DNA of 32,000 nt. It comes from Cuniculiplasma divulgatum. Lineage in GTDB: Archaea > Thermoplasmatota > Thermoplasmata > Thermoplasmatales > Thermoplasmataceae. Location: positions 1,590,001-1,622,000 of the forward strand of contig NZ_LT671858.1 of the NCBI RefSeq assembly GCF_900083515.1, read 5' to 3'. The notes beneath the pieces were generated by a model. That model had not been told where the DNA came from. It searched no databases and saw only the letters and a list, made by a program, of their open reading frames with translations. The position numbers were made by a program, and so were the translations under genes. The first letter of the stretch is position 1, and each line of letters begins with the position of its first letter. This document shows, piece after piece, positions 1,803 through 21,806 of this stretch.

Positions 1803-2354
1803 TAAACCTACCTGTTATCTGTTAATTACTCCTGACGTAATAACTGTTTTCCAAATATTTAAATCGTTTCGTATAACTAGCGCTTACAATTGTTCTGATA
1901 AACCATCAACTAAGATTCAACGCTTAGAAATTATTGAATGACAATTAACAAACTTCTAGCAGTGTCATGAATCTGATTGACAGAATTTGTAAGATTAATT
2001 ATACTTTTTTAAAATCTAACTGAAATAGAAAATTGATATTAAATAATGATTTCTAAAGAAAGGCGCGTACACTATTAGCTCATGCTGAGTAAGGAAGATA
2101 TTAAGGGACATGACCCATCTACTATCATATACATTGTGAACAAAATTTCTGCAGTGCAAAATTCATTCGGCAATTCCCTGATGTGGAAAATTTGTCGTTA
2201 AATAAAATCCATTTATGCTCTGTGTTTAAAATATTATTTTCTTGAGTTCAAATTGGAGTTATTGATAGAAAAAGCTCATGAAGCAATCTCGAAAATTAGC
2301 ATTGCCTGAAACTTAACAGAATGACTTCATTCCATTTATCTATTAAATCTATTG

Positions 2355-2368
2355 AAAGTATTATTTAG
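2355..2368 (+). promoter_or_regulatory. Putative archaeal BRE/TATA element for the SIR2-like cassette (leaderless-type spacing)
   Basis: aaagtATTATTTAg is centred about 24-25 nt upstream of the ATG at 2388. The same TATA-to-ATG spacing recurs at other first genes in this window. Confidence 0.3.
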
Positions 2369-2387
2369 TGATATATGATACTATTTT

Positions 2388-2669
2388 ATGGATTCGAATG
2401 AAAAAAGGATAGTCAAAGTTATTTCTATTCAACCTTTTCCAAGATCAGACACTGGAGAAAACCAGTTTCAGATTACATTTGGAAGATTTGCTCCTGTTCC
2501 AACGGAGAATATTGAGTATTTCAAATCTGACAATGCTGTTCCTCCAAAAACATTCCCAATAGTAGAGTTTGTTCTGTTTATGGAAAAAGAGGAAATTCCA
2601 TATAGAGTAGGAGAGAACTGGGAGTTAACCATCGAGGAAAAAGGAAGTTTTAGACTAAAAAAGATGTGA
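2388..2669 (+). CDS. Hypothetical small protein (93 aa), first gene of the SIR2-like cassette
   Basis: ORF with an ATG start. Its stop (2667-2669) overlaps the start region of the next ORF. I recognise no motif, and it has no TM segment or Cys. Coding status rests on operon packing and length only. Confidence 0.6.
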   Translation: MDSNEKRIVKVISIQPFPRSDTGENQFQITFGRFAPVPTENIEYFKSDNAVPPKTFPIVEFVLFMEKEEIPYRVGENWELTIEEKGSFRLKKM

Positions 2670-3391
2670 TTATGCTTCACGAACTGGCAAAACTTAAAAT
2701 TTCTCCAATACCTTTCAAAAGTAATTCTGGTTATTCAGCTCCAAGCAAAAGAAATCTGGAAAAAAGATATGGGAGAGATAGAGAAGAAAATGAAAATTAC
2801 GCCATGAGATCAGTATCTTATTCTGGTCTGATAAATTCGGAAATGCAAAGAGTGACCAAACCATATCTCAGAATAGATCGAACTCAAAGAAAATATGGAA
2901 GTAATATAATGGAAACAGGTCATATCAAGGTATCAAATTTCCTCGGGGAGATTTCAAATGAGGACCTTCTGAGCTACTCAACAATTAATCCTTTTATGCA
3001 AAAATTTTTGCAAAGTAACCATGTTATTCTCATATCAATTGATGATAAAAATAAACTCCTTGACGTGAAGGATTTGAAGTCAATGATAATTACTCAAAAA
3101 TTAAATAACGCCCTCACAAGTAAATTTGAATCAATATTGTATAGGGATATCAATAGTAAAGCACAAAAGAATGTTTATCAGATTGACGCAATTATAAAAC
3201 AAAAAATGGATTATATGCTAAAAGAGAAGACTTTCAAAGCATATCTAGAAGTAGAAGCTATTTTAGAATACTCTAAGCTCCACAGCGAATTGTGGCAAAA
3301 ATTCGATAATAAGGAGATTGATTTCGACACTTTGCTTAGAGAATCTCAGGAAAAATACAATTTAATTTTATCAGATTTGAAAGTTGATTGA
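2666..3391 (+). CDS. Hypothetical protein (241 aa), second gene of the SIR2-like cassette; basic N-terminal region and K/E/L-rich, probably coiled-coil C-terminal half
   Basis: Start is GTG at 2666 (4-nt overlap with the upstream stop) or ATG at 2672. The stop TGA at 3389-3391 is directly followed by the ATG of the SIR2 gene. I could not see a Walker A, TIR-like, nuclease or TM motif. Confidence 0.65.
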   Translation: MIMLHELAKLKISPIPFKSNSGYSAPSKRNLEKRYGRDREENENYAMRSVSYSGLINSEMQRVTKPYLRIDRTQRKYGSNIMETGHIKVSNFLGEISNEDLLSYSTINPFMQKFLQSNHVILISIDDKNKLLDVKDLKSMIITQKLNNALTSKFESILYRDINSKAQKNVYQIDAIIKQKMDYMLKEKTFKAYLEVEAILEYSKLHSELWQKFDNKEIDFDTLLRESQEKYNLILSDLKVD

Positions 3392-4360
3392 ATGGATTTT
3401 AGTTACTTAGGCAACAGATTATCTAAGGATATTGAGGGTGAACTGAGTGAGTATCTACCAGATTATCCGGATATTGGATCTCTTGCCTGGATAGTAGCCA
3501 ATACAGTGATTACTGAAGTTGAAAAGAATGGATCAAATATACTTCCTATGGATGGTATTGACCCTGAGATTTATTTGTTGCTTTTAGCAAGAGAATACTC
3601 CAAAAAGATATCTGAAAGGGTTTTTAAACTAAAAAACGAGGCTAAAGGTTTTTTTCAAAGTAACTACAAAATCTTACTACTTGTTGGTGCTGGTTTATCT
3701 TACGAGGCCGGGATGCCATTAACCAGACAATTAAAGGCGATTTTGAAAGCCATTGGCATTAAAACAACTGATGATAGAAATTTGAATGAGGCATTTAAGA
3801 CAGTAAAGACGAACCCTAGTTTAGATATAGAATTCAAGAAGAGATTTAGAAATTTAATCAATCAAAAAGTTTGTGAAAATAGTTCCCACACACTGATAGC
3901 ACAAAAATTCCTGGATGGAAGTATGCAGGAAATATTTTGTTTGAACTGGGACAACTTAATAGAACAAAGTTACAATAAATTGAATGGCAGTTATCCCATC
4001 AAAAAAATATCAAGTGAAGATGATTGCCCTCAAATTAATGATTCTTTTATTCACGCACTGTGGAAATTAAATGGTGATGTAGATGAAATTGATACAACTT
4101 GGATCTATCCTGGCGAGAATGGGAGAGTGTTCAATGGTTTGGATAAATATCTAAATTTTTTATTTAAGCAAACAGAAAAAACATTTATATCCTTAGCTGT
4201 GGGATATTCTGAATCTGATGAGAATATAAATAATAGTATAGTAACTAGGATCGAAGATCATTCAGCGTTTTTTAGAATTGGAATGGACATGCGACTTTTC
4301 AATAAATACGAAAATTATTTTTTAGTTTCGGCACAGTGGATACTACCTCAACTATTATGA
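3392..4360 (+). CDS. SIR2-like (SIR2_2 / ThsA-type) domain protein, 322 aa, with a ~95-aa N-terminal extension of unknown function
   Basis: Four collinear SIR2_2 blocks with ThsA-like spacing: LLLVGAGLSYEAGMP (aa 95-109), CLNWDNLIEQ (183-192, cf. TTNYDxLIE), LWKLNGDVDE (223-232, cf. KxHGD) and ISLAVGYSESDENI (266-279, cf. VGFSxTDxN). It has no CxxC...CxxC zinc module, so it is not a canonical sirtuin deacetylase. No SLOG, TIR or other C-terminal domain follows. Confidence 0.8.
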   Translation: MDFSYLGNRLSKDIEGELSEYLPDYPDIGSLAWIVANTVITEVEKNGSNILPMDGIDPEIYLLLLAREYSKKISERVFKLKNEAKGFFQSNYKILLLVGAGLSYEAGMPLTRQLKAILKAIGIKTTDDRNLNEAFKTVKTNPSLDIEFKKRFRNLINQKVCENSSHTLIAQKFLDGSMQEIFCLNWDNLIEQSYNKLNGSYPIKKISSEDDCPQINDSFIHALWKLNGDVDEIDTTWIYPGENGRVFNGLDKYLNFLFKQTEKTFISLAVGYSESDENINNSIVTRIEDHSAFFRIGMDMRLFNKYENYFLVSAQWILPQLL

Positions 4361-4837
4361 ACATAAACATAAAAATTTAAAAAACTCAATAAAGATTATT
4401 GTTTGGATTGAGTTTGCTTAGTAATTTCTGTTACTCTTACCTGAGAACAACTCATCGCTCAATTCCTTTAGTGAGAGTTTAGGAAAATATGTAAAGATTT
4501 CATTTGACACCGCACTTCCCTTATTCTTGCATATACAAGATCACAAAAACTGTTTTTAGATGCAGAGTTCATGAAGTTTACTGGTAATTGTTTAATTTTC
4601 TATTTTTATAAATGCTTTTAATAAATGAACACGAAAGGAGTTTGTTTTGTGGATAGATTTGTTATATGATAAAGTAGGATATTCTCACGACCATAACCTA
4701 TCAAAGGTTCTCACTTACAGTAATTTCAACTAAATTAGTTAATCTTCATTTTGAAGATGCAATATATTTAAATTTTGCATCATTGGCATCAGAGAAAAAT
4801 CACTAAAAAACTTGATATGTACACTCTTATTCCAGAC

Positions 4838-4844
4838 AAAAAAA
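4838..4844 (-). terminator. Possible archaeal oligo-T terminator downstream of the ChrB-like gene
   Basis: A run of 7 A on the + strand (T7 on the minus strand) lies about 36-42 nt past the stop at 4880-4882. Confidence 0.25.
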
Positions 4845-4879
4845 GAATTACTTCTTAATATACCTCTGTTTTACAGTAA

Positions 4880-5350
4880 TTATTTTTTTGCTGAATGCTC
4901 CAGTTTCTGTCCAGATTCCACTCTTTCCTTACAGTAGGCGTACAGGGCATCGTACATTGGAAACTGCAATTTCATATTTTCCATATCATTATGAGCAATA
5001 ATTCTGAAACCCATTGCAGCTGCTTCAAGTCCTGCAGATTCCACTGGTGCATCAGGTATGGATGCATCTGCTCCCCTTACTATTTTTGCCAGATCTAAAA
5101 GAGCCCGATCCATGATGTTGTATTTTTTAATTATTGCGTCAAAACTGACGTATTCCTTTCCATTCTCCTGAAAATGCATCAGCTCAACACCTGGAAAATC
5201 GAAAGGAGTAGCATTTTCCTTTTTTGCAGTTTCCATTACCTTGTCCTTTGGAACGAAGAGAAATATAGCGTCTTTATCAACAAATCTTGAAATCAACCAT
5301 GGACATGCAATTCTATCTACTTTTGCCTTCTCCCTTGTGACCCACTTCAT
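4880..5350 (-). CDS. Chromate-resistance ChrB C-terminal-domain-like protein (Chrome_Resist family)
   Basis: 156 aa. The N-terminal WVTREKAKVDRIACPWLISRFVDKDA matches the conserved VDRxACPWLIRRFID block of ChrB-type proteins. No chrA transporter is nearby. Confidence 0.65.
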   Translation of the reverse strand: MKWVTREKAKVDRIACPWLISRFVDKDAIFLFVPKDKVMETAKKENATPFDFPGVELMHFQENGKEYVSFDAIIKKYNIMDRALLDLAKIVRGADASIPDAPVESAGLEAAAMGFRIIAHNDMENMKLQFPMYDALYAYCKERVESGQKLEHSAKK

Positions 5351-5523
5351 ATCAATCTTTTGTTCTATCTCCGTGGAGTATATAGTTATTGCTGAAAGGA
5401 TAGTATAAGCTGGGAAATACGACTATCCCAATGTTTCACTTTTATGGAACAGATATAACATGACTCTGATGATAGAACATGTTATTTGCACATCGTTTGA
5501 ATTATTATTTCCACCCTAAGGAG

Positions 5524-6687
5524 TTATTTATAATACTTCCTGTACAGTGATTCCCTGTTTAACTCTTTCAGGTTTTTAATTCCTGATAGACCCATTTCAA
5601 GATCCATCTCTGCCATCACCTGCTCAAGATATAATTCTATGCCTTCCCTGCCTGCAACTGACAGTGCATACGCGTATGGCCTTCCTATCAGTATACCACT
5701 TGCACCAAGAGCAATGGCTTTTATTGCATCTGCTGCATGCCTGAACCCACTATCAAACAGAATTTCTCCCTTTAAGTCACCACTTTCTGTAACTTCCTCA
5801 AGTGCGTCCAGCGATGATATGGCACCATCCACCTGCCTCCCACCATGGTTTGATATCACCACAGCCCTCGCTCCGGATTTGAACGCCAGCTCAACATCTT
5901 CCCTGTGGGTTATGCCCTTCAGTACTACAGGAATTTCTGTAGTACTGCATATTTCTTTGAAATCCTTCCATGAAAAAGATGGGTTTACATATACCGATGT
6001 GAATTCCATAATGGCACTTATCAAATCTTCCTCAGGTGGTTTTTCCAGTCTCTTTCGAAATTCTGGATCTGAGAAGAAGTTTGCCAGTCCCTCACCTCTG
6101 AGAAAGGGCAGGTATGCATTATTCAGATCCCGCTCTCTCCATCCAAGCATTGTTGTATCTGCAGTAACAACAATTGCCCTGTACCCTGCTTTTTCTGCTC
6201 TTTTAATGAAACTTCTAATAATGTTTTTGTCCTTTGATGGATAAAGCTGAAGCCATTTCTCCCCTTCTGGCGACTTTTTCACTATTTCTTCCATTGTAAT
6301 GGATGAAACAGTGCTGAGTATGAAAGGCATATTCATTTTTGCTGCAGCCCTTGCGCTTGCAATTTCTCCGTCTTTGTGAAGTATGGACTGCACCCCTATG
6401 GGGGCAAGTATGAATGGTGACTCACGATTTTGACCAAGAAACTCTGCCTCCATTGTTCTTTTGGAAACATCTTTCAGATATCTTGGCCTTATACGCCACT
6501 TCTTGAATGCTGATCTATTTTCATGAACGGTATCTTCATCCCCCGCTCCGCCTTCAAGATAATCCCATGCATCTTTTGTTAGTGTGCTCCTTGCCCTTTC
6601 CATCCATTCATCGACCGACTGTGGCAGCTTCCTGTTTTCTACACCTGTAAAAATCTTTGTCTGGTATTTAGTTCCCTCATCTGTCAT
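5524..6687 (-). CDS. FMN-dependent alpha-hydroxy-acid dehydrogenase/oxidase (LldD / lactate oxidase / glycolate oxidase family)
   Basis: 387 aa, with the family motif VVISNHGGRQVDG, an FMN-phosphate-binding region DSGFRHAADAIKAIALGA, and an N-terminal substrate-lid region. It has its own TATA-like box (gtatattttattta, about 6711-6724). Confidence 0.88.
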   Translation of the reverse strand: MTDEGTKYQTKIFTGVENRKLPQSVDEWMERARSTLTKDAWDYLEGGAGDEDTVHENRSAFKKWRIRPRYLKDVSKRTMEAEFLGQNRESPFILAPIGVQSILHKDGEIASARAAAKMNMPFILSTVSSITMEEIVKKSPEGEKWLQLYPSKDKNIIRSFIKRAEKAGYRAIVVTADTTMLGWRERDLNNAYLPFLRGEGLANFFSDPEFRKRLEKPPEEDLISAIMEFTSVYVNPSFSWKDFKEICSTTEIPVVLKGITHREDVELAFKSGARAVVISNHGGRQVDGAISSLDALEEVTESGDLKGEILFDSGFRHAADAIKAIALGASGILIGRPYAYALSVAGREGIELYLEQVMAEMDLEMGLSGIKNLKELNRESLYRKYYK

Positions 6688-6772
6688 TATGAATTAGTAT
6701 GCATTCCCAAGTATATTTTATTTAGGGGAAGTTATAGCTGAACTATTTCTTCACTGCGGGAATTTAAAGATT

Positions 6773-7792
6773 TCAATGCATAAGGAGGTATCTATCCCTT
6801 TCATATTCTGAAATCCTGCTGATCTGATTTTCTATGGATTTTACCTCACTGTCGAGATCAAATTTCAAATCCATATTTTCCTCTTTGAGCATAAGATATA
6901 TGGAACCAATCACTGCATGATATCCGTATAAAGGTTCAGATGGAAACATATCTGGATGCTGATCTAGTACGATTTTTCTGATTTTATCCCAGTAAATGTT
7001 TGATGCTCTGAATAATCCCCCATAGCCACTAAAATGTACCTTCTCCTCACCAAACATTGATTCCGTGAGTGATGTAATACATCTTGCTGCCTCTGCGGCA
7101 GATTCTTCCATGAGCAAAGTTGCAAGATCATCCTCTTTTTCAGCCAGTTTTGATACTATGCTGGCGAATGAAGCTATTCTTCCTATTTCAGGTGGATTTG
7201 TGTACACCTTATTCACAATCTCTTTCAGATCATTTATTTGAAAATAGTCCTTAACATAATCTGGAATATCACTTCTTATGCCTGAACGACCATCATAAAT
7301 TTTCATTGTTTCCTGCAGTGCCCTTTTTGCTATGTAAAAAGCTCCACCCTCATCGCCCAGTATCCACCCCCATCCACTGACTCTTTTGAATATGTTTCCC
7401 TTCCTTCCATAGGAAACCATTCCTGTACCTGGACATATTACTATTCCATCCATTCCTGGAAATCTGCATTCGAATCCCGCTTCTCCATCGTTAAGTACTC
7501 TTACCTTTGAAGCCCTTTCCTTATCAACGATACTTGATACAAGTTCATTTTTTAAATTTGAGTCCTTCACACCTGCCAGTGCTATGGAAAATTTTGTTAT
7601 TTCACTCTCATCCACATCTGCCCTGTGAACAGCCCTTAATATGGCTTCCCTTATGTTTTTTCCAGCTTTCTCAACTCCAGCGGTCCTGTAATTGCCTGAA
7701 CCTGAAATGCCCATTCCGTGGATAATTCCATCTTCAGAATAACAAACCGCCACGGTCTTTGTGGCACCACCATCCACGGAAATAAACATCAT
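6773..7792 (-). CDS. BadF/BadG/BcrA/BcrD-type ATPase, probable N-acetylglucosamine or N-acetylmuramic acid kinase (paralog 1)
   Basis: 339 aa. N-terminal ISVDGGATKT phosphate-1 motif, PGTGMVSYG, and GWGWILGDEGGAFYIA, typical of NAGK/MurK-like kinases. Confidence 0.8.
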   Translation of the reverse strand: MMFISVDGGATKTVAVCYSEDGIIHGMGISGSGNYRTAGVEKAGKNIREAILRAVHRADVDESEITKFSIALAGVKDSNLKNELVSSIVDKERASKVRVLNDGEAGFECRFPGMDGIVICPGTGMVSYGRKGNIFKRVSGWGWILGDEGGAFYIAKRALQETMKIYDGRSGIRSDIPDYVKDYFQINDLKEIVNKVYTNPPEIGRIASFASIVSKLAEKEDDLATLLMEESAAEAARCITSLTESMFGEEKVHFSGYGGLFRASNIYWDKIRKIVLDQHPDMFPSEPLYGYHAVIGSIYLMLKEENMDLKFDLDSEVKSIENQISRISEYERDRYLLMH

Positions 7793-7822
7793 TCTTACTG
7801 TTAACCTTCAGGAATACATAAA

Positions 7823-8923
7823 TTAATCTGAATTGTTGAGCACAGAGAATACAAAGTTATGAAATCTTCTTCTGAATTTTAGTATCCTGATATTTTCCCT
7901 TGTTGGATATACCCTGTTAGTCAGTACAATTGCATAGGATCCTGTTTTTGGATCTATACAGATGGATGTTCCGGTGAATCCAGTATGTCCGAATGCACCA
8001 TAATTAACAGTTTCTCCCATGAATGCATTGTAACCAAATGATGGCCCTGAAACCAATGGTCTTGGAACCTTTATCATCCATCCCAGGCCGAACATTCCTC
8101 CTATATTCTGGTTCTGTGGTGTTATCATTTGATTAAGTGTTTCCTTTCTGACAATTTTTCCGTTTAAAAGAGCTTCAGTAAAGATGCCCAAATCGTGAGT
8201 GCTGCTGAATAACCCTGCATGGCCGCATACACCCCCATAAAAAAATGCCTTCTCGTCATGTACCTTTCCCCATACTGGCATCCCCCTTTCTGGATCCTCC
8301 TCTGTTGGTGCAATGTTTTCTTTTGCAACAGAAGGATTGAAGAATGAGCTCTTCATTGAAAGAGGTGAGAATATCTTCTCTTTTGCAAGAATATCAAGAG
8401 ATTTTCCTGAGATTTCCTCGAGAAGGAAGGCAAGCAGTATGAAGTTTAGATCACTGTATTCTTCCGTTGCTGGAAGGGTATTATGCTGGTGCATCAATCC
8501 AATGGTTCGGAGGTAGTCTTCCTTCGTTTTTCCATATTTGTATAGAGGAAATGTTGAGGTAAGACCTGATGTGTGTGTTATGAGCTGTTTAACCGTTAGA
8601 TTGGAAATTAACAGATCCTGATTATAGAGACCAAGTGATCCAAGGCTGTCCTCCAAACTTAGTTCTCCTCTCTCCACATATTTCATTACAAGACTTGCTG
8701 TTACTACCGGTTTTGTAAGAGAAGCCATATCATATATGGTATTCTCATTATATTTGAAATTGAGTTCTTTTATTTCTCCTGTAAAATATGATGTTTTATA
8801 TGATCCTTTTCCAACCAGAACGTTCATTCCTGATGATACACCCTTATAATTTTTCTCAACGAATTCCTTCAGCTCTTCTGAGAAACCATTCATATTCCTT
8901 CCACTTTTGCGGTTTTCACCCAT
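7823..8923 (-). CDS. Beta-lactamase-fold serine hydrolase (class C / DD-peptidase-like); possible AmiE(YbbE)-like MurNAc-L-Ala amidase
   Basis: SxxK active-site motif in MASLTKPVV, and HTGFTG near the C-terminus. The track starts at GTG 8932. I prefer ATG 8923, which lies 2 nt after the upstream stop and 5 nt after an SD-like AGGTGG. No signal peptide. Confidence 0.78.
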   Translation of the reverse strand: MGENRKSGRNMNGFSEELKEFVEKNYKGVSSGMNVLVGKGSYKTSYFTGEIKELNFKYNENTIYDMASLTKPVVTASLVMKYVERGELSLEDSLGSLGLYNQDLLISNLTVKQLITHTSGLTSTFPLYKYGKTKEDYLRTIGLMHQHNTLPATEEYSDLNFILLAFLLEEISGKSLDILAKEKIFSPLSMKSSFFNPSVAKENIAPTEEDPERGMPVWGKVHDEKAFFYGGVCGHAGLFSSTHDLGIFTEALLNGKIVRKETLNQMITPQNQNIGGMFGLGWMIKVPRPLVSGPSFGYNAFMGETVNYGAFGHTGFTGTSICIDPKTGSYAIVLTNRVYPTRENIRILKFRRRFHNFVFSVLNNSD

Positions 8924-8925
8924 GT

Positions 8926-9912
8926 TCACCACCTCACGACCTTGTTCAGATTCGAAGGATGATCAGGATCCAGACCCATACTTACAGCCTTGAAATTTGC
9001 AAGAAGCTGAATGAAAACAAGTGAATTGAAAACTTTTTGAAACGGTTTTTCCTCGTTGAATTTCAGCACTGCTTCTCCATTCCCTATTGTAATTATTTCT
9101 CCAGATAGTTCCTCTAGTTTTTCCATAATTTTTTTGTTTGGTAAACTACCCTCAGTCAGCCATATAATAGTTGTTTCCCTGTCCAGTCTGTGGATCGGTC
9201 CATGAAAATATTCCCTTGTTGGATATGATTCTGTGATCAGTCCAGTGGTTTCCTTGAACTTAAGACCACCCTCAAGAGCCACTGGATAGCTCTTTTCTGA
9301 ACCCAGGAAAACAACCTTATTATGGATTTCAGATGAAAGTAATCTTATTTGCTCTGTCAGTGAAAATATTTTTTCTATACCACTGCATAAATGATCCAGA
9401 TCTTCAACCAGTTTTTTATCATTCCTGAGACTGTAGTCCATGAGCATCGATACAGCCACCTGAGCAGCGTGGGACTTGGTTGCCGCTATGGACTTTTCCT
9501 TTCCAGCGTGTGTGAGTATGGGATGATCGGATTCCATGAATAGCTGACTTTCTTTCTCATTTGTTATTCCTATGACTGTAAATCCATATTTCTTTGAAAG
9601 CTTCAAATTGGATATTGCATCGCTACTTTCACCTGACTGGCTAAAAATTATGTTAGTGATAGTGCCTTTCATATTCCTTACAATATTTTCAGTGTATTCT
9701 GACGATGTCATCGCCACTGATCTTATGCCGTTTTCCAGTAATGTATAATTTAGGATGAGAGCAGCGTTATAACTGGTTCCACTACCTGTAATAAAGACCA
9801 GAGATGAATTTTTTATTTGATCTATTACTTTTTTAATTTTATCAGCGTTTTCATTGATAGTTTTCCTTATGGCCTCAGGCTCTTCCTGGATCTCTTCATA
9901 CATGACTGTCAT
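8926..9912 (-). CDS. Double-SIS-domain sugar-phosphate isomerase, GlmS-isomerase-domain-like; probable glucosamine-6-phosphate deaminase (GlmD/NagB-II type)
   Basis: 328 aa. Start EIQEEPEAI, then ITGSGTSYNAAL and SQSGESSD SIS motifs. A TATA-like ctataaat (9935-9942) is centred about 27 nt upstream of the ATG at 9912. Confidence 0.8.
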   Translation of the reverse strand: MTVMYEEIQEEPEAIRKTINENADKIKKVIDQIKNSSLVFITGSGTSYNAALILNYTLLENGIRSVAMTSSEYTENIVRNMKGTITNIIFSQSGESSDAISNLKLSKKYGFTVIGITNEKESQLFMESDHPILTHAGKEKSIAATKSHAAQVAVSMLMDYSLRNDKKLVEDLDHLCSGIEKIFSLTEQIRLLSSEIHNKVVFLGSEKSYPVALEGGLKFKETTGLITESYPTREYFHGPIHRLDRETTIIWLTEGSLPNKKIMEKLEELSGEIITIGNGEAVLKFNEEKPFQKVFNSLVFIQLLANFKAVSMGLDPDHPSNLNKVVRW

Positions 9913-13318: not shown

Positions 13319-14323
13319 ATGAGTATGTTGCTTGCCATTGACGGGGGATCTACAAAAACCATATCTGTTGTATTTGATGAGGAAAAAAATGAGATAGTTT
13401 CTGTTGGACTTAGCGGATCAGCAAATTATACTACGAATAGTCTGGAATTTGCCATAACAAACCTAAGCAAATCTATAAATGATGCAATAGAAGCGGCAGA
13501 TATAACAATGGATTCGATTGAAAAGGTAATCGTGTCAATAGTAGGAATAGGAGATTCAGAAGAAGCAACAAAAATGGGAAATGAGATAATTTCCAGTCTT
13601 ATTGGGAAAAGAGAATATAGTGTAATTAATGATGGCCTGGCTGCTTATTACTTAGGAAACGGTAGTGAAAATGGTATAGTTTTTGCACCTGGTACTGGAA
13701 GTGTGGGATACATAAAGATAGAAAATAGAATGAAAAGATTTGGAGGATGGGGATGGAGCATTGGAGATATGTCCTCTGCCACATGGTTTAGTAAAAAATC
13801 TGTTGAGGTTGCAATGATGGAAATGGATTCAGAAAGTGGTAGAAAACCATTTCTTGAAACTGTAGAGAATCATTTCAAGACTTCGTTAAGGGAATTATCC
13901 TGGCAGATTGAACGCAGATATATACAAAAGGAGAAATTAGCCTCATTTTCAGTAAATCTATCAAGGATGGCAAAGGATGGAAACAAAGAGGCACTCGCAC
14001 TGTTCGATGAATCTGCATCCTATATGGGTAAAATTATTAATGGAATTAGAAGTAAATATTCTGATGCAAAAAGAGTTTCCATAATGGGTGGGACAATGCA
14101 GGCAGGAGAATTTTATTATAAAATGATTAGAAAATATATACCTGATGTTAACATATTTTTTGGATATGAAATTGTAATTGGAACTATTATGCATATGAAG
14201 AATGAGATGGATTTTAAATTCAGAGACAGTTTGCTTAAGCAGCTTGATCATTCCCTTGAAAAAATACCGGAAGGTGAATTAAAGGGGTATTTGAATATAG
14301 ACAAACCAATGAAACTTCCATGA
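13319..14323 (+). CDS. BadF/BadG/BcrA/BcrD-type ATPase, probable GlcNAc/MurNAc kinase (paralog 2)
   Basis: 334 aa. LAIDGGSTKT, PGTGSVGY and GGWGWSIGDMSSATW match the same kinase family as 6773-7792, but the two are clearly divergent. Confidence 0.78.
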   Translation: MSMLLAIDGGSTKTISVVFDEEKNEIVSVGLSGSANYTTNSLEFAITNLSKSINDAIEAADITMDSIEKVIVSIVGIGDSEEATKMGNEIISSLIGKREYSVINDGLAAYYLGNGSENGIVFAPGTGSVGYIKIENRMKRFGGWGWSIGDMSSATWFSKKSVEVAMMEMDSESGRKPFLETVENHFKTSLRELSWQIERRYIQKEKLASFSVNLSRMAKDGNKEALALFDESASYMGKIINGIRSKYSDAKRVSIMGGTMQAGEFYYKMIRKYIPDVNIFFGYEIVIGTIMHMKNEMDFKFRDSLLKQLDHSLEKIPEGELKGYLNIDKPMKLP

Positions 14324-15358
14324 TCATTCTTTTTCAAAATTGAAAACGCCAGATACCATCTTTATATCCTCAAGGGTGGCATTTTTTCCCCCTACTGTAT
14401 AAGTACCAGTTATAGTTTTGATTACAAATGCGTACTGCAAACCCTGAATTCTCTTTACAGAGATAACATCTGCATTAAGTGAAACAGGTCCACTGGCGTC
14501 AAATCCTTCTACTTCAACCTTGCACTTATATCCTTTTGAAAAAGCGTTATCAATTAGTTCACATGCAAGCCAGGATGAAGAAATTTTAACATTTTCCATT
14601 CCATCGAAGTCGCGGTAATATCTTGATGAGACCCAGTTCATATTGAAAAAGTAGTAATCGAGAACATCAACGAGCTCTTCCTCCTGTATAAATATAGAAT
14701 AATCAGAAGTTTGAGAAAGAGAATTTGCATTCAAGAAAGCTATTTTTCTATCAACAACCACAATTTCAACGGGCATTATACTTCTTATTCTTAGTATGCC
14801 AAGTTCAGATAATGTGACCAAACTTTTTTCATCTATGCTCTCTTTCATAACAGAGCATATTGTGACCCCTCTTTTTCTGGCCCTCCTTAATGCAGGCAGG
14901 AGTTCAGCTAGCTTATGATATTCCATAGATAATATAATTTCTGAATTAGACTCTGAAATCATCAATTCAAGCTTCAACATCACGCTCTTGCTGTTTTCTA
15001 TAAACCATACATTGGGAGCCCTAATTTCAAAATCACTCCTGTTCTCCAGAATATATTTATCCAAACGATCAATGTACTCATTCATATATTCTACATTGTG
15101 CCTGAGAGCTGCTGAAGGCATTATGGCCTCATAAGTTTTGTTTATGCTCGAGTTCATGATTATGAGCCCTTTTCTCTGAAGTTTACCAAGAACATCATAT
15201 GTTCTTGGCTGGGGAATTCCAGTAACCTTTATTATTTCACTGGCGCGCATAGGACCCTTTAACAACAGTGAGGAATAAGCCTTGATCTCGTAGTTAGATA
15301 ATTGAAATTTTTCTAAGTCTCTGAATGTATCTGAATCCAAATCGATCACATAGTTCAT
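14324..15358 (-). CDS. TrmB-family sugar-sensing transcriptional regulator
   Basis: 344 aa. N-terminal winged helix YEIKAYSSLLLKGPMRASEIIKVTGIPQPRTYDVLGKLQRKGLI, plus a long C-terminal effector domain. Its stop abuts the stop of the convergent kinase gene (TGATCA at 14321-14326). Confidence 0.85.
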   Translation of the reverse strand: MNYVIDLDSDTFRDLEKFQLSNYEIKAYSSLLLKGPMRASEIIKVTGIPQPRTYDVLGKLQRKGLIIMNSSINKTYEAIMPSAALRHNVEYMNEYIDRLDKYILENRSDFEIRAPNVWFIENSKSVMLKLELMISESNSEIILSMEYHKLAELLPALRRARKRGVTICSVMKESIDEKSLVTLSELGILRIRSIMPVEIVVVDRKIAFLNANSLSQTSDYSIFIQEEELVDVLDYYFFNMNWVSSRYYRDFDGMENVKISSSWLACELIDNAFSKGYKCKVEVEGFDASGPVSLNADVISVKRIQGLQYAFVIKTITGTYTVGGKNATLEDIKMVSGVFNFEKE

Positions 15359-15391
15359 GCGTTAAAAATATTTAACTATAACATTATATCG

Positions 15392-17323
15392 TTATTTACT
15401 TATTTCAATTGCCTTAACTTGAATTCTCTTTTCCCCTATTAGAATATCTTTATCCTTATCAGAATCAGAAACTTTGAATTCGTCTCCCAAATACATATCG
15501 AAACTCCCCTTCCCATAAATAAGTATTTTATCATCGTAGATAATTGCTGAATTGTTCTTTACAAAAATGGGAAAATGATCATCGACTTTCAAATAGGCTG
15601 GACCGATAATCTTTTCGTTATTACTGAAACGAATCCATTCACCTTTCGGAATGTAAACCTCCCTTGATTCTTGATTTTCAATTTTTGGTGCATATATTAA
15701 ATTGTCTCCGAGCATATACTCATCCCTCAGATGAATAGTAGTTTCATCATTCCAATAATAAAATGAAAGTGGTGATATGCTTGGCTTTAGATATTTGTGA
15801 GAGAAGAATAAACACTGATATATTTGATCCGTAAATTTGTAGCGCATTAGTACACTTTTAATTATATCATCCCGGATTCTTGGTGGCTGGAGAAAAATCT
15901 CCTGTTCATTCCCAGCTATGTCTTTGTGGTTTCTGTATAATGGAAAAAGTAGGGCCATCCTGTAATAGTCTGCAAGTAGCTGAGGGTTGCTATTACTGAA
16001 AAATCCTCCAAGATCGCATCCACAGGAAGTTATACCACTTATTGAAAGAGATGGAACCATAGACATTTGTAGATATAGATCATCATAGGAAGAAATATTG
16101 TCCCCGGTCCACATAGCAGCGTATTTTTGTATTCCAGAATATCCAGCTCTTGTTAGTATGAACGGATTTAGATCTTTTTCCTTCATAGAGTAAAATGTGG
16201 CCATTGCTTGAAAATTTGGATAAGCGTTTCTTATTTCTTTGTGTTTCCTTGTAGTTCCATCATCACACTTATGAATGGATTTGCCGTCTATTATTTTATC
16301 CCCCTGAAGAACAGTGGGCTCATTCATATCAAGCCATATGCCATCTACACCATACTCAAGCCATCTTTTAATTTCATTTCCCCATCTCTTTCTAGACTCT
16401 TTGTTAAAAAAATCAGGAAAGGCAGATGTACCTGGCCACATTGAACCTGAATATATCTCATTATTCTCCGTTTCCATATATGTACCGTTCAATCTATTAA
16501 AAACTTCATAATTCTGATCTATTTTAATAGAAGGGTCGATAATAGTTACAATTTTTGTGTCTCTTTCGTGAAGACTCTTTATGAATGATTTGGGATTTTT
16601 GAAACGTTTTCTATTCCATGTGAAAAGTTTGTAATCCTGCATATGATGTATATCAAAATACATAGAATCTACAGGTACAAACTTTTTGTAATTAATCAGA
16701 ACCTCAAGTGCGGCCGTGTCAGGATAATAGGTATAACGTGATATGGAATGCCCTGTAGCCCATTTCGGTATTAAAACTGGGCTTCCTGTCAATCTAAGAT
16801 ATTGCTCCAATATTTTTTCCGGAGTGTCTCCATTAAAGAGGTAGAAATCACATTTCTTAGAATCCACTGTTATCTTAATTTTGTCATATATCTCTACACC
16901 AAAATCAAGCACTATTTTACCGGGATAGTCCACAAAGTATCCAAATGCTTTATCTTCCAGTGTTAGGATGAAAAATGGAATCGATGAATATATTGGATCC
17001 TCGCCAGTTTTGTATGTATCCGGGTCTCTATTCAGCATTACAAATTTTTTCCGCTTCCTATCTACTGGAAAAGCTTTTGCTCCCAGTCCTATAATATGTG
17101 ACTTGACTGCGAGGTTGATCAGAATGACAATACAGTCATTCTCCACACTAAATTCTATACCGTCTGGCATTGCGTCAACTTTCCTCCTTTCCTCCTCCTT
17201 TTTGGTATTTCTGAAATTCATAATGGATCGATATCCATTAAAACTTACCAACCTATAATCATCAAATAAACTTATTTTATAAGCCATGCTTTTACCCCTA
17301 TTTTTTAATATAACTATTCCCAA
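15392..17323 (-). CDS. Glycoside hydrolase family 31 (alpha-glucosidase-like)
   Basis: 643 aa. Catalytic nucleophile block GIWLDMNEP and acid/base region MWTGDNISSY. An alternative start (MAYKISLF) lies at 17287. Confidence 0.88.
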   Translation of the reverse strand: MGIVILKNRGKSMAYKISLFDDYRLVSFNGYRSIMNFRNTKKEEERRKVDAMPDGIEFSVENDCIVILINLAVKSHIIGLGAKAFPVDRKRKKFVMLNRDPDTYKTGEDPIYSSIPFFILTLEDKAFGYFVDYPGKIVLDFGVEIYDKIKITVDSKKCDFYLFNGDTPEKILEQYLRLTGSPVLIPKWATGHSISRYTYYPDTAALEVLINYKKFVPVDSMYFDIHHMQDYKLFTWNRKRFKNPKSFIKSLHERDTKIVTIIDPSIKIDQNYEVFNRLNGTYMETENNEIYSGSMWPGTSAFPDFFNKESRKRWGNEIKRWLEYGVDGIWLDMNEPTVLQGDKIIDGKSIHKCDDGTTRKHKEIRNAYPNFQAMATFYSMKEKDLNPFILTRAGYSGIQKYAAMWTGDNISSYDDLYLQMSMVPSLSISGITSCGCDLGGFFSNSNPQLLADYYRMALLFPLYRNHKDIAGNEQEIFLQPPRIRDDIIKSVLMRYKFTDQIYQCLFFSHKYLKPSISPLSFYYWNDETTIHLRDEYMLGDNLIYAPKIENQESREVYIPKGEWIRFSNNEKIIGPAYLKVDDHFPIFVKNNSAIIYDDKILIYGKGSFDMYLGDEFKVSDSDKDKDILIGEKRIQVKAIEISK

Positions 17324-17329
17324 TATTCC

Positions 17330-18391
17330 TCAGTTTTTATCTATTCTATTCCCATTTTTTCCAAAGATGTATAGGTCAGATATGGAAATGTATAGAGCCA
17401 TTTCAGATTTAGAATTTAAATCAAAATCTTCACTAAGTCTGACCCTTACCTCCTTATTTGATTTTGATTTACCTATGATCACTGAATAAGAGCCAAAACT
17501 TTCTATTGTTTGTGGCCTTATTTTTAGTTCTATATCATTTTCTTTTTCCCGTTTCAACTTCATGGATTCTGGTCTTATACCTATATTTATTTCCTTTTCT
17601 TCAGCGTTTATTCCCTTGATGATCAGGTCATCTGAAACATAAACTCCAGAATCTTTTACCATTTCAAAGAAATTTATAACAGGTTCTCCCAGAAAAGCAG
17701 CCACATATTCATTCCTGGGATTTTTGTAAACTTCCATGGGGGCTCCTACCTGTTCTAACTTTCCGTTTCTTAGAATCGCGATATGATCTCCAAGTGACAT
17801 TGCTTCCTGCTGATCATGGGTTACATAAATGAAGGTTTTTCCTAAATTTTGTTGAATCAGCTTCAACTCTACTCTTATTTGGTTTCTTATTTTTGCGTCC
17901 AAATTTGAGAGAGGTTCGTCAAGAAGAAATACTCCTGGGTCCCTTACAAGTGCTCTTCCAAGGGATACCCTCTGGGCCTGACCTCCAGATAGTTCTCTTG
18001 GGTATCTATTTAAATACTCTTCAAGTCCAAGGGTTTTTGCTACTTCCTCCACCTTTTCATCTATTACATCCTTTGTATATTTTCTCATTTTTAAAGGAAA
18101 CGCTATGTTGTTTCTAACTGTCAGGTGTGGGTATAACGCATAATCCTGAAACACCATTGCAATTCCTCTCTGAACTGGACTCATACTATTTACGATTTTA
18201 TCGTCAAAAAGTATATCTCCGGAGGTTGCTCTTTCAAGCCCTGCAATTATGTTTAGCGTCGTGGATTTTCCAGACCCCGAAGCGCCAAGAAGAATAAAAA
18301 ATTCCTTGTCCTCTACATTTAAATTCATGTTGTTTAATACAACAGTGTTTGAAAATTTCTTGTTTATATCTTTAAGTTTTACCGATACCAT
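17330..18391 (-). CDS. Sugar ABC transporter ATP-binding protein (MalK/UgpC-like)
   Basis: Walker A GASGSGKST, signature LSGGQAQRV, Walker B FLLDEPLS, and a C-terminal regulatory (TOBE-like) extension. Confidence 0.9.
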   Translation of the reverse strand: MVSVKLKDINKKFSNTVVLNNMNLNVEDKEFFILLGASGSGKSTTLNIIAGLERATSGDILFDDKIVNSMSPVQRGIAMVFQDYALYPHLTVRNNIAFPLKMRKYTKDVIDEKVEEVAKTLGLEEYLNRYPRELSGGQAQRVSLGRALVRDPGVFLLDEPLSNLDAKIRNQIRVELKLIQQNLGKTFIYVTHDQQEAMSLGDHIAILRNGKLEQVGAPMEVYKNPRNEYVAAFLGEPVINFFEMVKDSGVYVSDDLIIKGINAEEKEINIGIRPESMKLKREKENDIELKIRPQTIESFGSYSVIIGKSKSNKEVRVRLSEDFDLNSKSEMALYISISDLYIFGKNGNRIDKN

Positions 18392-18395
18392 ACTT

Positions 18396-19220
18396 TCACC
18401 CCTTTACTCCTCCAACTGAAAATGCTTTTATTAGGTACTTTTGAGCGAATATGTACATAATTAATGTGGGAATCATGTAAACTACTGATGCTGCTGCAAG
18501 CTGGTTATATTGTACTGAATATGCACCGAAATATGTGTAGATATATACTGCGATAGGAAATAGATGCCTCGAACTTAGAAGTATATATGGAACATAGAAA
18601 TTCCCCCAATTTGTAATAAAATCAAGAAGAATAAGAACTGCTATTGTTGGGAAAGCAAGTGGAAGGAAAACTCTTGTAATTGACTGGAATGAGGACGCAC
18701 CATCAACCAACGCTGCTCTTTCAATTGATCTGGGAATCTGATCGAACGAGTTTTTCATTATCCAGATTGTTATTGGTAGATTTAAAACTCCCAAAAAAAG
18801 GATTACCCCTATCTGAGTGTTATAAAGATTGACATTCTGATAAAATACATACATAGGGATCAAAAGTGAAAAGACAGGAAATCCCGTAAAAAAAAGTATT
18901 GTTAATATAAGTGCTATTCTGAATGGAAATCTCTTCCTTGAAAATACGTAAGATGCGAAGACAGCCAGTGTGATTGAGATTGCTGTTCCACCTAAAGACT
19001 GGATCAGGCCATTTTCTATAGATAAAGAAAAATACTTATTTGTAAAGATTTCCGCATATGCAGCAATAGTAAATGAGCCAAAATTACCGAATCCCTCATT
19101 GCTAATAGATGCAAATCCTTCCACGAAAACCCATACAAAGGGTATAAGGAAAAAAATAGCCAACAGAGTTAATAATATATATGAAAGTGAACTTTTTATT
19201 GTAGCATTTTCAATCTTCAA
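18396..19220 (-). CDS. Carbohydrate ABC transporter permease (MalG-like)
   Basis: 274 aa, multi-TM, with an EAA-loop-like IERAALVDGASSFQSITRVFLPL. It overlaps the upstream permease gene by 11 nt. Confidence 0.85.
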   Translation of the reverse strand: MKIENATIKSSLSYILLTLLAIFFLIPFVWVFVEGFASISNEGFGNFGSFTIAAYAEIFTNKYFSLSIENGLIQSLGGTAISITLAVFASYVFSRKRFPFRIALILTILFFTGFPVFSLLIPMYVFYQNVNLYNTQIGVILFLGVLNLPITIWIMKNSFDQIPRSIERAALVDGASSFQSITRVFLPLAFPTIAVLILLDFITNWGNFYVPYILLSSRHLFPIAVYIYTYFGAYSVQYNQLAAASVVYMIPTLIMYIFAQKYLIKAFSVGGVKG

Positions 19221-20112
19221 TTTTGATCACCTTCAGGTATAAAAGGGACATTATAACACCAGCCAAAATAATGATAACTCCGATGGCATTTGCCAGACCA
19301 ACGTTAAAAACGGAAAACGCAGTGTTATACTGGTATATTGTTAGAATATTAGTCGAGTCTGATGGCCCACCATGAGTAAGTACAAAAATGAGAGTAAAAG
19401 CACCAAGTGTCCATAAAGTGATGAGAATCATATCCGTAAGGATAGTTTGCTTTAACATTGGAAATATTATTCTAAAGAATCTTGAAAAGGATCCTGCACC
19501 ATCTACAACAGTTGCCTTGATGACTGATGGATTTATGTTTTTAATTGCAGAACTGAATAAAAGGACTGAAAATCCCATTCCCAGCCATGCATTTGCAATA
19601 ATAATCATATATAGCGCGTTATGAAACGATAGAAAATGGATTGGAGCGACACCAATACTATTTAATATATAATTGGCCAGTCCCATCGGCACATAACTCA
19701 GGGTACTGTACCATGTTATCCCACTTACCACTTGGGGAGTTGCCCACGCCATAAGTATTGTAAGTGTGATTATAGTTCCAAAAAATTTATTAGTTCCATT
19801 AATAACATAGGCCACTATAGCTCCAAAAAACATCTGACCAATTACCGCTGAAAATACAAAGAAAACGATAGTTATAACAATTGATTGTTCAAAAATAGAA
19901 CTTGTGAAAAGCCTCGTATAGTTAAAAAATCCTACGAAATTAAAGTTGTTAATGTTTAATAATGAAATGTTTGTAAAAGAGTAATATATGGAAAGAAACA
20001 ATGGATAAATAAAGAATATACCTAAATATAAAAAAGCCGGTATTAATGCTAAAATGTAAAAAATAATTGAATTTTCCTTGTCCTTCAGTTGCCTGCTCTC
20101 TGATGGGAACAT
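19210..20112 (-). CDS. Carbohydrate ABC transporter permease (MalF-like)
   Basis: 300 aa, multi-TM, with an EAA-loop-like IKATVVDGAGSFSRFFRIIFPML. Confidence 0.85.
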   Translation of the reverse strand: MFPSESRQLKDKENSIIFYILALIPAFLYLGIFFIYPLFLSIYYSFTNISLLNINNFNFVGFFNYTRLFTSSIFEQSIVITIVFFVFSAVIGQMFFGAIVAYVINGTNKFFGTIITLTILMAWATPQVVSGITWYSTLSYVPMGLANYILNSIGVAPIHFLSFHNALYMIIIANAWLGMGFSVLLFSSAIKNINPSVIKATVVDGAGSFSRFFRIIFPMLKQTILTDMILITLWTLGAFTLIFVLTHGGPSDSTNILTIYQYNTAFSVFNVGLANAIGVIIILAGVIMSLLYLKVIKIED

Positions 20113-20120
20113 TTTTTCAC

Positions 20121-21692
20121 TCAGGCTTTAATTTTTGATACTAAGTAAAGGTTGTTATAAAACTGCAGTGATGGTGATTGAACGTCCTTAGATTGTAACT
20201 GAGCATATTGAGTTGCGATAGAACTGGAAGCTGATGGTCCTATTTTTGGACCTTTCACTATTTGTACCTTTGAACTGCCGAAGTCTGTTACGAGTGCGGA
20301 ATCGTATGCACTTAATGCACTGGATACACTCATTTTGCCCACCACGACATCACTCATCGCAGCCTGTAGTGCCGTTGAGACTGTTGGGTATGTTGATACT
20401 GGAGGTCTATAACTTCCATATTTCAGTGCTTTTGCATAGAATGTATCAAGTTGTGGTGCGTTAGGCATTAGATCTTTGAACATTGGATTGCTTGATGCAC
20501 TTGTTGTAGCTGGTAATCCTCCCGCAAGCGCCTGGCCTGGCAAATTTATTTTTATTTGATTTGTTGTGTTATCCAGTGCCTGCATGAATGAGTAAACGAG
20601 GGACTTGTTGCTAACGCCGTTATACATTGCCCACCCCCATCCACCTACCATGGAATTATAATATGGGGCCTGACCAAATTCAGTTGGTATATACGCGAGA
20701 CCAATATATTTTGTAAAGTTATGAATCTCATGAGATCCGGAAGCCCATTGGTAACCATACATCCAGCTTCCATCTACAGCAATTCCTAACTTACCTTCCT
20801 GTAAATACTGACCTGTGGTTATATAAGGAGTTGTGCTAAGATCAACTGATGCAAGGTTGTCTGTCACAAATGCTGTTTTATAGAAATGTAATGTAGCATT
20901 AAGACCAGGATTGTTACCATACCACTGTGAACTTGAAAAGTTATAAAGACCCCATCCAGTTCCATATAGTAACCCTTCAAATCCAGTAAAGCTTGAAGCC
21001 TCTCCACCCCTGGTATCAGTGTATATATTCATTGGAATGAATCCTTTTATTGACGATAGATTAGCCTTAAGTTCCATTGACGTGTGAAGTATATCTGCCC
21101 AGCTTGTTGGTTGCCATGGAGTTTTTATACCGGCTTCGTGGAAAAGTGACATGTTGTAATATATTAACGTGTCTGTTACCTGGGTTGGCATACCATATAT
21201 TGTTCCGTTTATTTCCATCTGACCCAGGGCTGACGGGAAGAATGAATTCTTTTCTGTGGAATTCATATAGTTATTTAGTGGTGCTATCACTTTTTCATGT
21301 GCATAGGTTGCAGTATAGAACATATCCTCCAGCATCACATCTGGAGCAGTAGAAGCTTTTGATGTCATCAAATCAAGCTTATCATAATACTGTGCCTCAC
21401 TACTTGCGTCAAAAGGCCCTACGAATTTTATTTCCACGTTTGGATGTGCTTTCTGCCACACAGCAGTTTCGTTATTTACGAAATTCTCCCATATGGTTGA
21501 ACTAGAGCTGTACACAGGTCCAGCTACCGTTATTGTTACCTTTTTAGATGTTGTCGTTGGATGGTTTGTTATAATAAAATAGGTTCCAATACCAGCAACA
21601 ATAAGTACGATTACAACAGCAATAGCAATTATTACTTTCTTGCTACTTCCTCCACTACTATTAGTCCCACTACTTTGCATAGTATAACCCAT
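20121..21692 (-). CDS. Extracellular solute-binding protein of the ABC importer, membrane-anchored (archaeal type)
   Basis: 523 aa. The N-terminal TM helix VIIAIAVVIVLIVAGIGTYFII is followed by a Thr/Ser linker (TNHPTTTSKK). There is no lipobox Cys. About 10 N-x-S/T sequons occur in the mature part. It is the first gene of the transporter operon. Confidence 0.8.
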   Translation of the reverse strand: MGYTMQSSGTNSSGGSSKKVIIAIAVVIVLIVAGIGTYFIITNHPTTTSKKVTITVAGPVYSSSSTIWENFVNNETAVWQKAHPNVEIKFVGPFDASSEAQYYDKLDLMTSKASTAPDVMLEDMFYTATYAHEKVIAPLNNYMNSTEKNSFFPSALGQMEINGTIYGMPTQVTDTLIYYNMSLFHEAGIKTPWQPTSWADILHTSMELKANLSSIKGFIPMNIYTDTRGGEASSFTGFEGLLYGTGWGLYNFSSSQWYGNNPGLNATLHFYKTAFVTDNLASVDLSTTPYITTGQYLQEGKLGIAVDGSWMYGYQWASGSHEIHNFTKYIGLAYIPTEFGQAPYYNSMVGGWGWAMYNGVSNKSLVYSFMQALDNTTNQIKINLPGQALAGGLPATTSASSNPMFKDLMPNAPQLDTFYAKALKYGSYRPPVSTYPTVSTALQAAMSDVVVGKMSVSSALSAYDSALVTDFGSSKVQIVKGPKIGPSASSSIATQYAQLQSKDVQSPSLQFYNNLYLVSKIKA

Positions 21693-21700
21693 GATTAAAA

Positions 21701-21767
21701 TACTATATATGTTTTTTTATGGGTTTAAATATTGCCATGTCCAGTGTCGCAAAATATCGTGCCATGT
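21701..21767 (-). promoter_or_regulatory. Promoter region of the ABC/GH31 operon, with AT-rich TATA candidates and a direct repeat TGCCATGT (21733-21740, 21760-21767)
   Basis: TATA candidates on the minus strand are ATAAAAAAA (about 24 nt from the ATG at 21692) and AATATTTAAA (21724-21733). The exact 8-mer repeat, spaced 27 bp, sits immediately upstream of them. Confidence 0.3.
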
Positions 21768-21806
21768 TTTCCAATTTGAATTATTGGAGCTATAATACAA
21801 CTGCCT

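Follow-up and report, generated by a model that had tools for sequence, protein, structure and literature searches.

Prokaryotic immunity repeatedly uses SIR2 effectors as its output module; few of them have been studied in archaea, and the sensors that control them are poorly known. One described system of similar layout to the locus reported here is Kongming, which consists of the adenosine deaminase KomA, the HAM1-like protein KomB and the SIR2 protein KomC, and in which KomB and KomC form a stable effector pair that is joined by an exchangeable third gene (10.1101/2024.12.20.629578). A precedent for a SIR2 protein with an altered active site is SirTM, an ADP-ribosyltransferase in which Gln137 replaces the sirtuin histidine and which has no deacylase activity and ADP-ribosylates an operon-encoded protein (PMC4518038). 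Here we analyze a three-gene cassette (genes A, B and C, in that order) in a 32,000-nucleotide (nt) stretch of the Cuniculiplasma divulgatum genome (contig NZ_LT671858.1, positions 1,590,001 to 1,622,000), which we call the window. Gene C encodes a SIR2 family protein of 322 amino acids (aa). A preliminary description, made from the sequence letters before the source was disclosed, had proposed an undescribed archaeal defense system at this site; the source is indeed an archaeon, a member of the Thermoplasmatales.

We read the cassette, with a probability of roughly 0.55, as a horizontally acquired accessory operon that belongs to a rare and undescribed SIR2-based conflict system, likely antiviral, with a B-C effector core and a swappable gene A. 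From comparative sequence analysis it is probably a new SIR2-based defense-system variant with novel partners. A literature search by accession and by topic found no description of the window operon or of an equivalent.

The B-C pair and its variable third gene

The family of C comprises 10 clusters in an index of 5.8 billion proteins. Word-indexed homolog searches with A and B returned almost nothing, and phmmer with B found three relatives among 1.84 billion representative proteins; the partner families were recovered from the DNA around C homologs. Our set of about 100 loci includes 13 genome and 51 metagenome loci from pattern scans and 13 more from exact look-ups. Component hidden Markov models (HMMs) run over all open reading frames (ORFs) of these loci gave 61 unique C sequences, 39 of which form the core family (E < 1e-60). 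Linkage was counted among those unique core-family loci for which 700 nt or more of upstream DNA was available. A B-family gene lies immediately upstream of C on the same strand in 34 of these 35 loci, and the B-C junction falls within -50 to +10 nt in 29 of the 34. At the sole exception, L007, the B slot holds an unrelated gene of 293 aa. Judged by gene order and by the co-variation of B with C, the conserved unit is the B-C pair, and the family that it defines is rare.

Two operon types can be distinguished by their B proteins. The short type, which includes the window, L004, L012, L001/5, L014 and L015, has a B of 131-294 aa, and the long type has a related B' of about 200-333 aa together with an A' protein of about 300 aa. 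Profile alignment of B with B' by hhalign gives a probability of 93.9% (E 1.6e-7) over 116 columns that cover the C-terminal roughly 120 residues, and in the shortest B proteins (131-153 aa) nothing but this conserved C-terminal core is present. The basic N-terminus that had been noted for the window B is confirmed (pI 10.0 for residues 1-90).

The slot upstream of B is far less constant. Among the unique loci, it is occupied by A' in 17, by a 198-aa type in four, by the 93-aa type of the window in three and by other genes in three, while eight have no co-directional gene at this position. Profile-profile comparisons among the A-slot families, and of A with B, were all negative, with probabilities of 0.5% or less. 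Homologs of the window A were found only in L004 (78% identity), P0013 (80%) and L012 (41%). By these comparisons the slot, when not empty, is filled from four or more unrelated families, and we describe A as a swappable third gene. The version found in Thermoproteota may be a two-gene system. At L014, the gene upstream of a 143-aa short B (6841-7335), which looks OsmC/Ohr-like by eye, lies 217 nt from B and is probably outside the operon. The preliminary description had treated the three genes as a fixed trio and asked whether both small proteins recur beside SIR2 genes: this is so for B, while A recurs in three unique loci only, and the trio gives way to a pair with a swappable or absent third gene.

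Neither partner resembles a known family in the libraries searched. A has no match in Pfam, PADLOC, NCBIfam, PHROGs or PDB, in agreement with the earlier view of a 93-aa protein without recognizable motif (four HMM libraries), and B has none in Pfam, PADLOC, NCBIfam or PHROGs. The PADLOC models are dated 2023. Profiles of B and B' searched against the PDB matched no chain at E values up to 10, with the KomBC entries (9xvc, 9v12) present in the library, and PDB profile searches with A' and A were likewise without significant match. Two hits in the PDB searches with partner profiles, SvtR (2kel, E 0.12) and a ribosomal protein (E 0.33), were taken as chance. None of 37 partner proteins from related loci belongs to a PADLOC or Pfam family, the lone match (DUF5906) being to a neighboring mobile-element gene.

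The family is spread patchily over Thermoplasmata, Thermoproteota, Methanodesulfokora, Thaumarchaeota, Dehalococcoidia, Deltaproteobacteria, Actinomycetota and Clostridia. Proteins of about 370-385 aa at L024, L025, L061-L064, L067 and L069-L074 make up a SIR2 subgroup further removed from C; it has the motif LWKLHGD, matches the C profile at E 1e-30 to 1e-43 and has neither a B nor consistent neighbors, and on this basis it is a different family. At L074, two SIR2-like genes of 369 aa (1120-2229) and 778 aa (2627-4963) stand in tandem. The viral collections contained only distant SIR2 domains in proteins of roughly 910 aa and the sirtuins of eukaryotic giant viruses. The roughly 910-aa proteins, from IMG/VR (L027, 2462-5206; L028, 3526-6252; L029, 5698-8439), share 24% identity over about 210 residues and have another architecture.

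The SIR2 protein and its catalytic site

C passes the gathering threshold of the Pfam SIR2_2 model (PF13289; 28.4 bits against a cut-off of 24.5, residues 180-284), which also annotates most of its homologs. PADLOC ThsA1 matches C at 1e-8 through the SIR2 part only (profile positions 24-209 of 478), and the canonical models remain below their thresholds (PF02146, 16 bits against 24; NCBIfam NAD-dependent deacylase, 18.7 bits against 243). Searched against PDB sequences, the C-family profile found SeThsA (7uxt) at 1.6e-12, KomC at 1.6e-9, the SPARSA Sir2 at 9e-8 and SIR2-HerA at 3e-4. The AlphaFold2 model of C, built on a 10-sequence family alignment (predicted local distance difference test, pLDDT, 84.5; predicted template modeling score, pTM, 0.82), has three N-terminal helices (residues 3-21, 28-45 and 58-88) followed by a Rossmann-type SIR2 domain. 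Its top Foldseek matches in the PDB are solely immune SIR2 proteins (BcThsA, SeThsA, SIR2-HerA, KomC, SPARSA and DSR2), with a probability of 1.00 to ThsA, SIR2-HerA, KomC and DSR2. Since the corresponding TM-scores are all similar and modest (0.37-0.47), we consider C a separate branch and not a member of one named immune SIR2 group. With only three cysteines (161, 183 and 212) and no CxxC pair, C lacks a zinc module.

Much of what had been stated about C at the outset is therefore retained: an immune-type SIR2 domain, the missing zinc module and an N-terminal extension, then put at about 95 aa and now at roughly 90 residues. The claim that all four ThsA-type motif blocks are present does not survive. 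Three of them are found, with G99, G101 and S103 of the first and G271 and S273 of the last invariant across the family alignment, and Y272 and E274 nearly so. In the K-L-H-G-D block, the window protein has Asn227 at the place of the catalytic histidine. This block reads LWK[LF]HGD in about 70 homologs, and asparagine occurs only in the window and in P0002/L004, the closest relative of the window C (61% identity), together two of about 61 unique family members. The Asn227 column aligns to the catalytic histidine of ThsA, to His146 of KomC and to the asparagine of the engineered PDB entry KomC(H146N), in which the sequence is KFNGD. The codon is AAT in the window and L004 and CAT in the next relative, L012, a single C-to-A change.

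Because of this substitution, the NAD-targeting proposed earlier is doubtful for the window copy: rapid NAD+ depletion by the Cuniculiplasma protein has to be called doubtful when the catalytic histidine is naturally the asparagine of KomC(H146N). The protein is nevertheless not decaying, since it keeps 28 of the 30 positions that are invariant in eight His-bearing homologs (the only other change is I178M) and evolves with a ratio of nonsynonymous to synonymous substitution rates (dN/dS) well below 1. Comparing the window and L004 operons, both with asparagine, gives dN/dS values of 0.10 (A), 0.52 (B) and 0.24 (C), which are rough because dS (about 0.8-1.1) is near saturation. Asn227 is kept in every population variant of C. 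The cassette sequence is identical on 17 of 18 Cuniculiplasma metagenome contigs, and within-population polymorphism is uninformative. One population variant from a metagenome contig (P0001) carries H166Y, at a family-invariant histidine, plus E20K, and could be either genuine or an artifact of assembly. As far as alignment and substitution rates can tell, the Cuniculiplasma C probably works by a chemistry that is reduced or changed, not by the classical rapid depletion of NAD+, and the selection data make its complete inactivity unlikely.

Accessory status, neighborhoods and locus features

The cassette lies in a strain-variable segment (Table 1). In blastn comparisons of the empty-site genomes L101 (CP133596.1) and L103 with the window, positions 1-1875 aligned at 99.9% and 4853-9000 at 99.4%, with nothing between. 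CP133596.1 (complete, 1.93 Mb) and GCA_022678495.1 have an identical FixC, with ChrB_C 374 nt from it, and no cassette. Because the flanks are conserved while the cassette is absent from other strains, the cassette is accessory DNA, a presence/absence polymorphism within one species-level population. The 273-nt filler (GC 0.34) is the same in both cassette-free genomes and unrelated to the insert; therefore, the site between ChrB_C and FixC resembles a replacement hotspot more than a simple insertion with target duplication. The insert boundaries are sharp, and a search for terminal repeats or att-like sites found none. Among L081-L100, many independent assemblies give contigs of about 4 kb that run from about 650 nt upstream of A to a point shortly past ChrB_C, and two other Cuniculiplasma contigs break off 16-58 nt past ChrB_C, just short of the cassette. 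The contig ends of L081-L100 are in keeping with a mixture of populations that do and do not carry the insert.

The preliminary description had seen the cassette as an AT-richer island. Its genes do have a lower GC content (0.31-0.35, compared with 0.38 +/- 0.027 in the window's remaining 25 ORFs), though only moderately so, and a sugar-utilization cluster at 13319-23234, which encodes a BadF/BcrA-type ATPase, a TrmB regulator, GH31, an ABC sugar transporter and GH3, is about as AT-rich (0.34-0.36). Low GC alone is thus no mark of foreign DNA here, and it is the empty site that proves the island.

Several independent loci of the family have defense or mobile genes nearby, including a Type I restriction endonuclease (L019), a Type I methyltransferase (L059), a Type IIG restriction-modification gene (L044), a PD-T4-6/MkoA-like gene (L017), HNH (L004), MT-A70 (L008) and DUF5906 (L047). 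Cas4, mad2, integrase and PIN genes also occur near some related loci. At L047, a DUF5906 protein (1528-1959, E 1.2e-10) and small phage- or plasmid-like ORFs precede the B'-C module, which suggests that this copy is carried on a mobile element. At L001/L002, an operon on the opposite strand (2554-9015, minus) lies directly by the B-C module. It encodes DUF87/HerA-like (705 aa) and ThiF/E1-like (449 aa) proteins, along with several small ORFs that have no domain, and may be another defense system.

The ORF list of the window bears out the three plus-strand genes and the direct abutment of the B stop codon (TGA, 3389-3391) on the C start codon (ATG, 3392) with a spacer of zero, both as first described. 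For the A/B junction, two starts had been offered, GTG 2666 (241 aa, 2666-3391), which overlaps A by 4 nt, and ATG 2672 (239 aa). The ATG, which leaves a 2-nt spacer after the A stop, is almost certainly the start according to the comparison with related operons: the same 2-nt spacer is found in the L004 and L012 operons with 93-aa-type A genes, and WP_148690075.1 has 239 aa, as does every gene call on 20 Cuniculiplasma contigs. The TATA-like box reported about 25 nt upstream of A is present; it is weaker than claimed, since the AT-rich 585-nt spacer contains four such matches (6.8 per kb, compared with 2.8 per kb window-wide). The sequence ATTATTTA could possibly be an archaeal promoter for a near-leaderless transcript. 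A bacterial promoter and terminator scan of the window, a method not applicable to an archaeon, stayed at chance level, and a search of the window for tRNA and Rfam elements found none.

Table 1. Cassette features and their coordinates in the window
Feature	Position	Strand	Description
Strain-variable segment with cassette	1876-4852		2,977 nt, GC 0.31; replaced by unrelated 273 nt elsewhere
TATA-like ATTATTTA	2360-2367	+	21-28 nt upstream of the A start codon, read from sequence
Gene A	2388-2669	+	WP_148690074.1, 93 aa, acidic, no known domain; variable third slot
Gene B	2672-3391	+	WP_148690075.1, basic variable N-terminal half and conserved helical C-terminal domain (predicted); constant SIR2 partner
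Conserved B core	3011-3388	+	about residues 114-239, motif EAxLEY...LWxKFDxxEIDFDTLLR, common to B' of long-type operons
Gene C	3392-4360	+	WP_148690076.1, 322 aa, 'SIR2 family protein', defense-type SIR2_2, zinc module absent
N-terminal extension of C	3392-3664	+	residues 1-91, family-specific three helices (model and family alignment)
GAGLS, NAD-binding Rossmann motif	3686-3700	+	residues 99-103, aligns with GAGxS of ThsA and KomC
NWD motif	3944-3952	+	N185, W186, D187; family-invariant; aligns with TNYD catalytic Asn block of ThsA and KomC
Codon AAT (Asn227)	4070-4072	+	catalytic His position of SIR2 enzymes, LWKLNGD
GYSESD, fourth SIR2_2 block	4202-4219	+	residues 271-276, aligns with GFSFED (ThsA) and GYSLSD (KomC)

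Interpretation and comparison with described systems

An antiviral role for the cassette is suggested indirectly by its accessory status together with the defense and mobile genes at several related loci. In such a system, B would bind C, probably at the N-terminal extension of C through the conserved C-terminal domain of B, and would keep C off until a trigger arrives, while the variable N-terminus of B and the swappable A would supply trigger recognition or signal production. In the His-bearing members, release of C would lead to NAD+ hydrolysis, and the infected cell would stop growing. The Cuniculiplasma branch (the window and L004) might act as a slow NADase, by ADP-ribosyl transfer or by NAD binding only. 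The further-reaching formulation, that these genes represent a new modular SIR2 immune family in archaea and bacteria in which the fixed His-to-Asn change has converted the Cuniculiplasma protein to another chemistry (ADP-ribosyl transfer, or NAD+ binding without hydrolysis), seems improbable to us.

A number of observations weigh against the reading as an antiviral conflict operon. The neighbors of the cassette in the window are metabolic (ETF/FixABCX, ChrB_C, an FMN dehydrogenase and sugar utilization) and form no defense island, and many neighbors of the related loci, in a locus-by-locus listing, are housekeeping genes. The histidine missing from the window C matters in its relatives: H146A in KomC abolishes Kongming defense, mutants of the equivalent histidine inactivate FAM118 NADases, and the equivalent residue is reported to be important for ThsA. 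Because the partner proteins have no recognizable domain, their roles in sensing and regulation are pure inference. For the C-terminal half of B, originally called coiled-coil-like, what stands is a helical prediction from a low-confidence single-sequence model (pLDDT 40.7) that is too poor for use. Finally, the pairwise distances of B and C co-vary (Spearman 0.85, Mantel p 0.001, 33 loci), a correlation equally expected from the simple co-inheritance of neighboring genes.

Some of the same features would fit a toxin-antitoxin-like or addiction module, in which C would be a toxin that works on NAD+ or through ADP-ribosylation, B its antitoxin and A an accessory regulator, and the cassette would persist through post-segregational killing or a stress response. 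B and C are closely coupled, with the gene for the putative inhibitor preceding that for the enzyme, the presence/absence polymorphism and patchy taxonomic spread are as such modules would have them, PIN and integrase genes occur in some neighborhoods, and B evolves fast, as antitoxins often do. B is, however, large (130-380 aa) and has no recognizable DNA-binding domain, a variable third gene is more typical of sensor-effector defense, and the closest SIR2 structures all come from antiviral systems. We consider this explanation unlikely, and the blurred border between addiction and abortive infection makes it a partial rival only. Quite unlikely, in our estimate, is a regulatory role of the SirTM kind, with C reversibly ADP-ribosylating A, B or a cellular target. 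It draws on the SirTM precedent, on the conservation of Asn227 under selection in two lineages and on the retention of Asn185. Against this, with asparagine in only two members, such a role would be a derived state of one small branch and not what the family does, genes for a macrodomain eraser, a lipoate ligase or a GcvH-like protein are missing, and C groups with the immune SIR2_2 proteins while falling below the PF02146 threshold.

The substitution could also have killed the enzyme, leaving a disabled remnant that is passive or kept for a non-enzymatic role. KomC(H146N) carries the same change, the His-to-Ala mutant of KomC fails to defend, and sister strains lack the cassette with no obvious consequence; yet all three frames are intact, the invariant residues and the dN/dS values speak for constraint, and the sequence is identical across 17 independent metagenome contigs, which makes a remnant quite unlikely. 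That C is a housekeeping sirtuin deacylase next to two unrelated small genes is effectively refuted: the deacylase models do score weakly, but far below their cut-offs, and the gene has neither zinc module nor catalytic histidine, is missing from sister strains, is strictly linked to B and has immune SIR2 proteins as its closest structures.

If the cassette is an accessory conflict operon, its compact effector pair with novel partners and an exchangeable third gene offers a natural experiment on how a trigger is coupled to SIR2. The conserved His-to-Asn variant allows a test of whether an immune SIR2 protein can work without the canonical catalytic base or has switched its chemistry, and sister strains with and without the cassette on near-identical flanks provide a clean background against the viruses of acid-mine archaea. 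SIR2 candidates are common; strict B-C linkage in archaea and bacteria alike, a swappable gene, a clean empty site and the His-to-Asn change make this one well suited to experiments.

The preliminary description held that the partners fit none of the architectures of Thoeris, DSR1/DSR2, SIR2-HerA, SPARSA and AVAST, and that no TIR, SLOG, HerA, Argonaute or STAND partner is encoded. Library scans of A and B agree and extend this to HAM1 and deaminase domains, and membership in these systems and in Kongming was rejected feature by feature. Canonical sirtuins (CobB/Sir2) differ from C in sequence score, zinc module and histidine alike. SirTM resembles it in having an amide in place of the catalytic histidine (Gln137 in SpySirTM, where an arginine partners it, and Asn227 here) and in keeping the asparagine of the catalytic block, but it belongs to another SIR2 clade; no macrodomain, GcvH-L or LplA2 gene is found in A, B or the flanks, and most members of the present family keep the histidine. 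For SPARSA, there are only weak, partial matches to PADLOC Aga_SIR2 (1.3e-4, residues 92-137) and no Argonaute in the operon. SIR2-HerA (Nezha) and DSR1/DSR2 share the immune SIR2 fold (8w9l, 8wld, 8wkt and others) and presumably an NAD+-depleting abortive-infection logic. In contrast to SIR2-HerA, neither A nor B has a HerA/DUF87 or Walker-type match, and the DUF87 gene at L001 is on the opposite strand in a separate operon. Unlike DSR1/DSR2 and AVAST type 5, in which SIR2 is part of a protein of about 1,000 aa with a sensor or STAND portion, C has 322 aa with a 90-residue helical extension.

The best matches of the SIR2 domain itself are to Thoeris ThsA (ThsA1, 1e-8; SeThsA 7uxt, 1.6e-12; BcThsA 8btp, Foldseek 3.9e-8), which has the same motif layout and no zinc module. 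C differs in ending at residue 322, right after the SIR2 domain, without SLOG (STALD), the window C has no catalytic histidine, and no ThsB TIR gene is found in the operon or among the 37 partner proteins of related loci. Compared with Kongming, no PF01725 (HAM1) domain is found in B or any B/B' member and no PF00962 (adenosine deaminase) domain in A or any A-slot family; C has an additional N-terminal extension of roughly 90 residues, the window protein has asparagine at KomC His146, and the fold match (TM about 0.4) is no better than to other immune SIR2 proteins. Both are nevertheless three-gene operons that end in a small stand-alone SIR2_2 protein (KomC has 264 aa and matches the C profile at E 1.6e-9), and both combine a stable, co-evolving two-protein pair with an exchangeable third gene. 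In organization the cassette is thus closest to Kongming, while its SIR2 protein most resembles ThsA or KomC; the proposed B-C core with its swappable A follows the same logic as the KomB-KomC pair and its exchangeable third gene.

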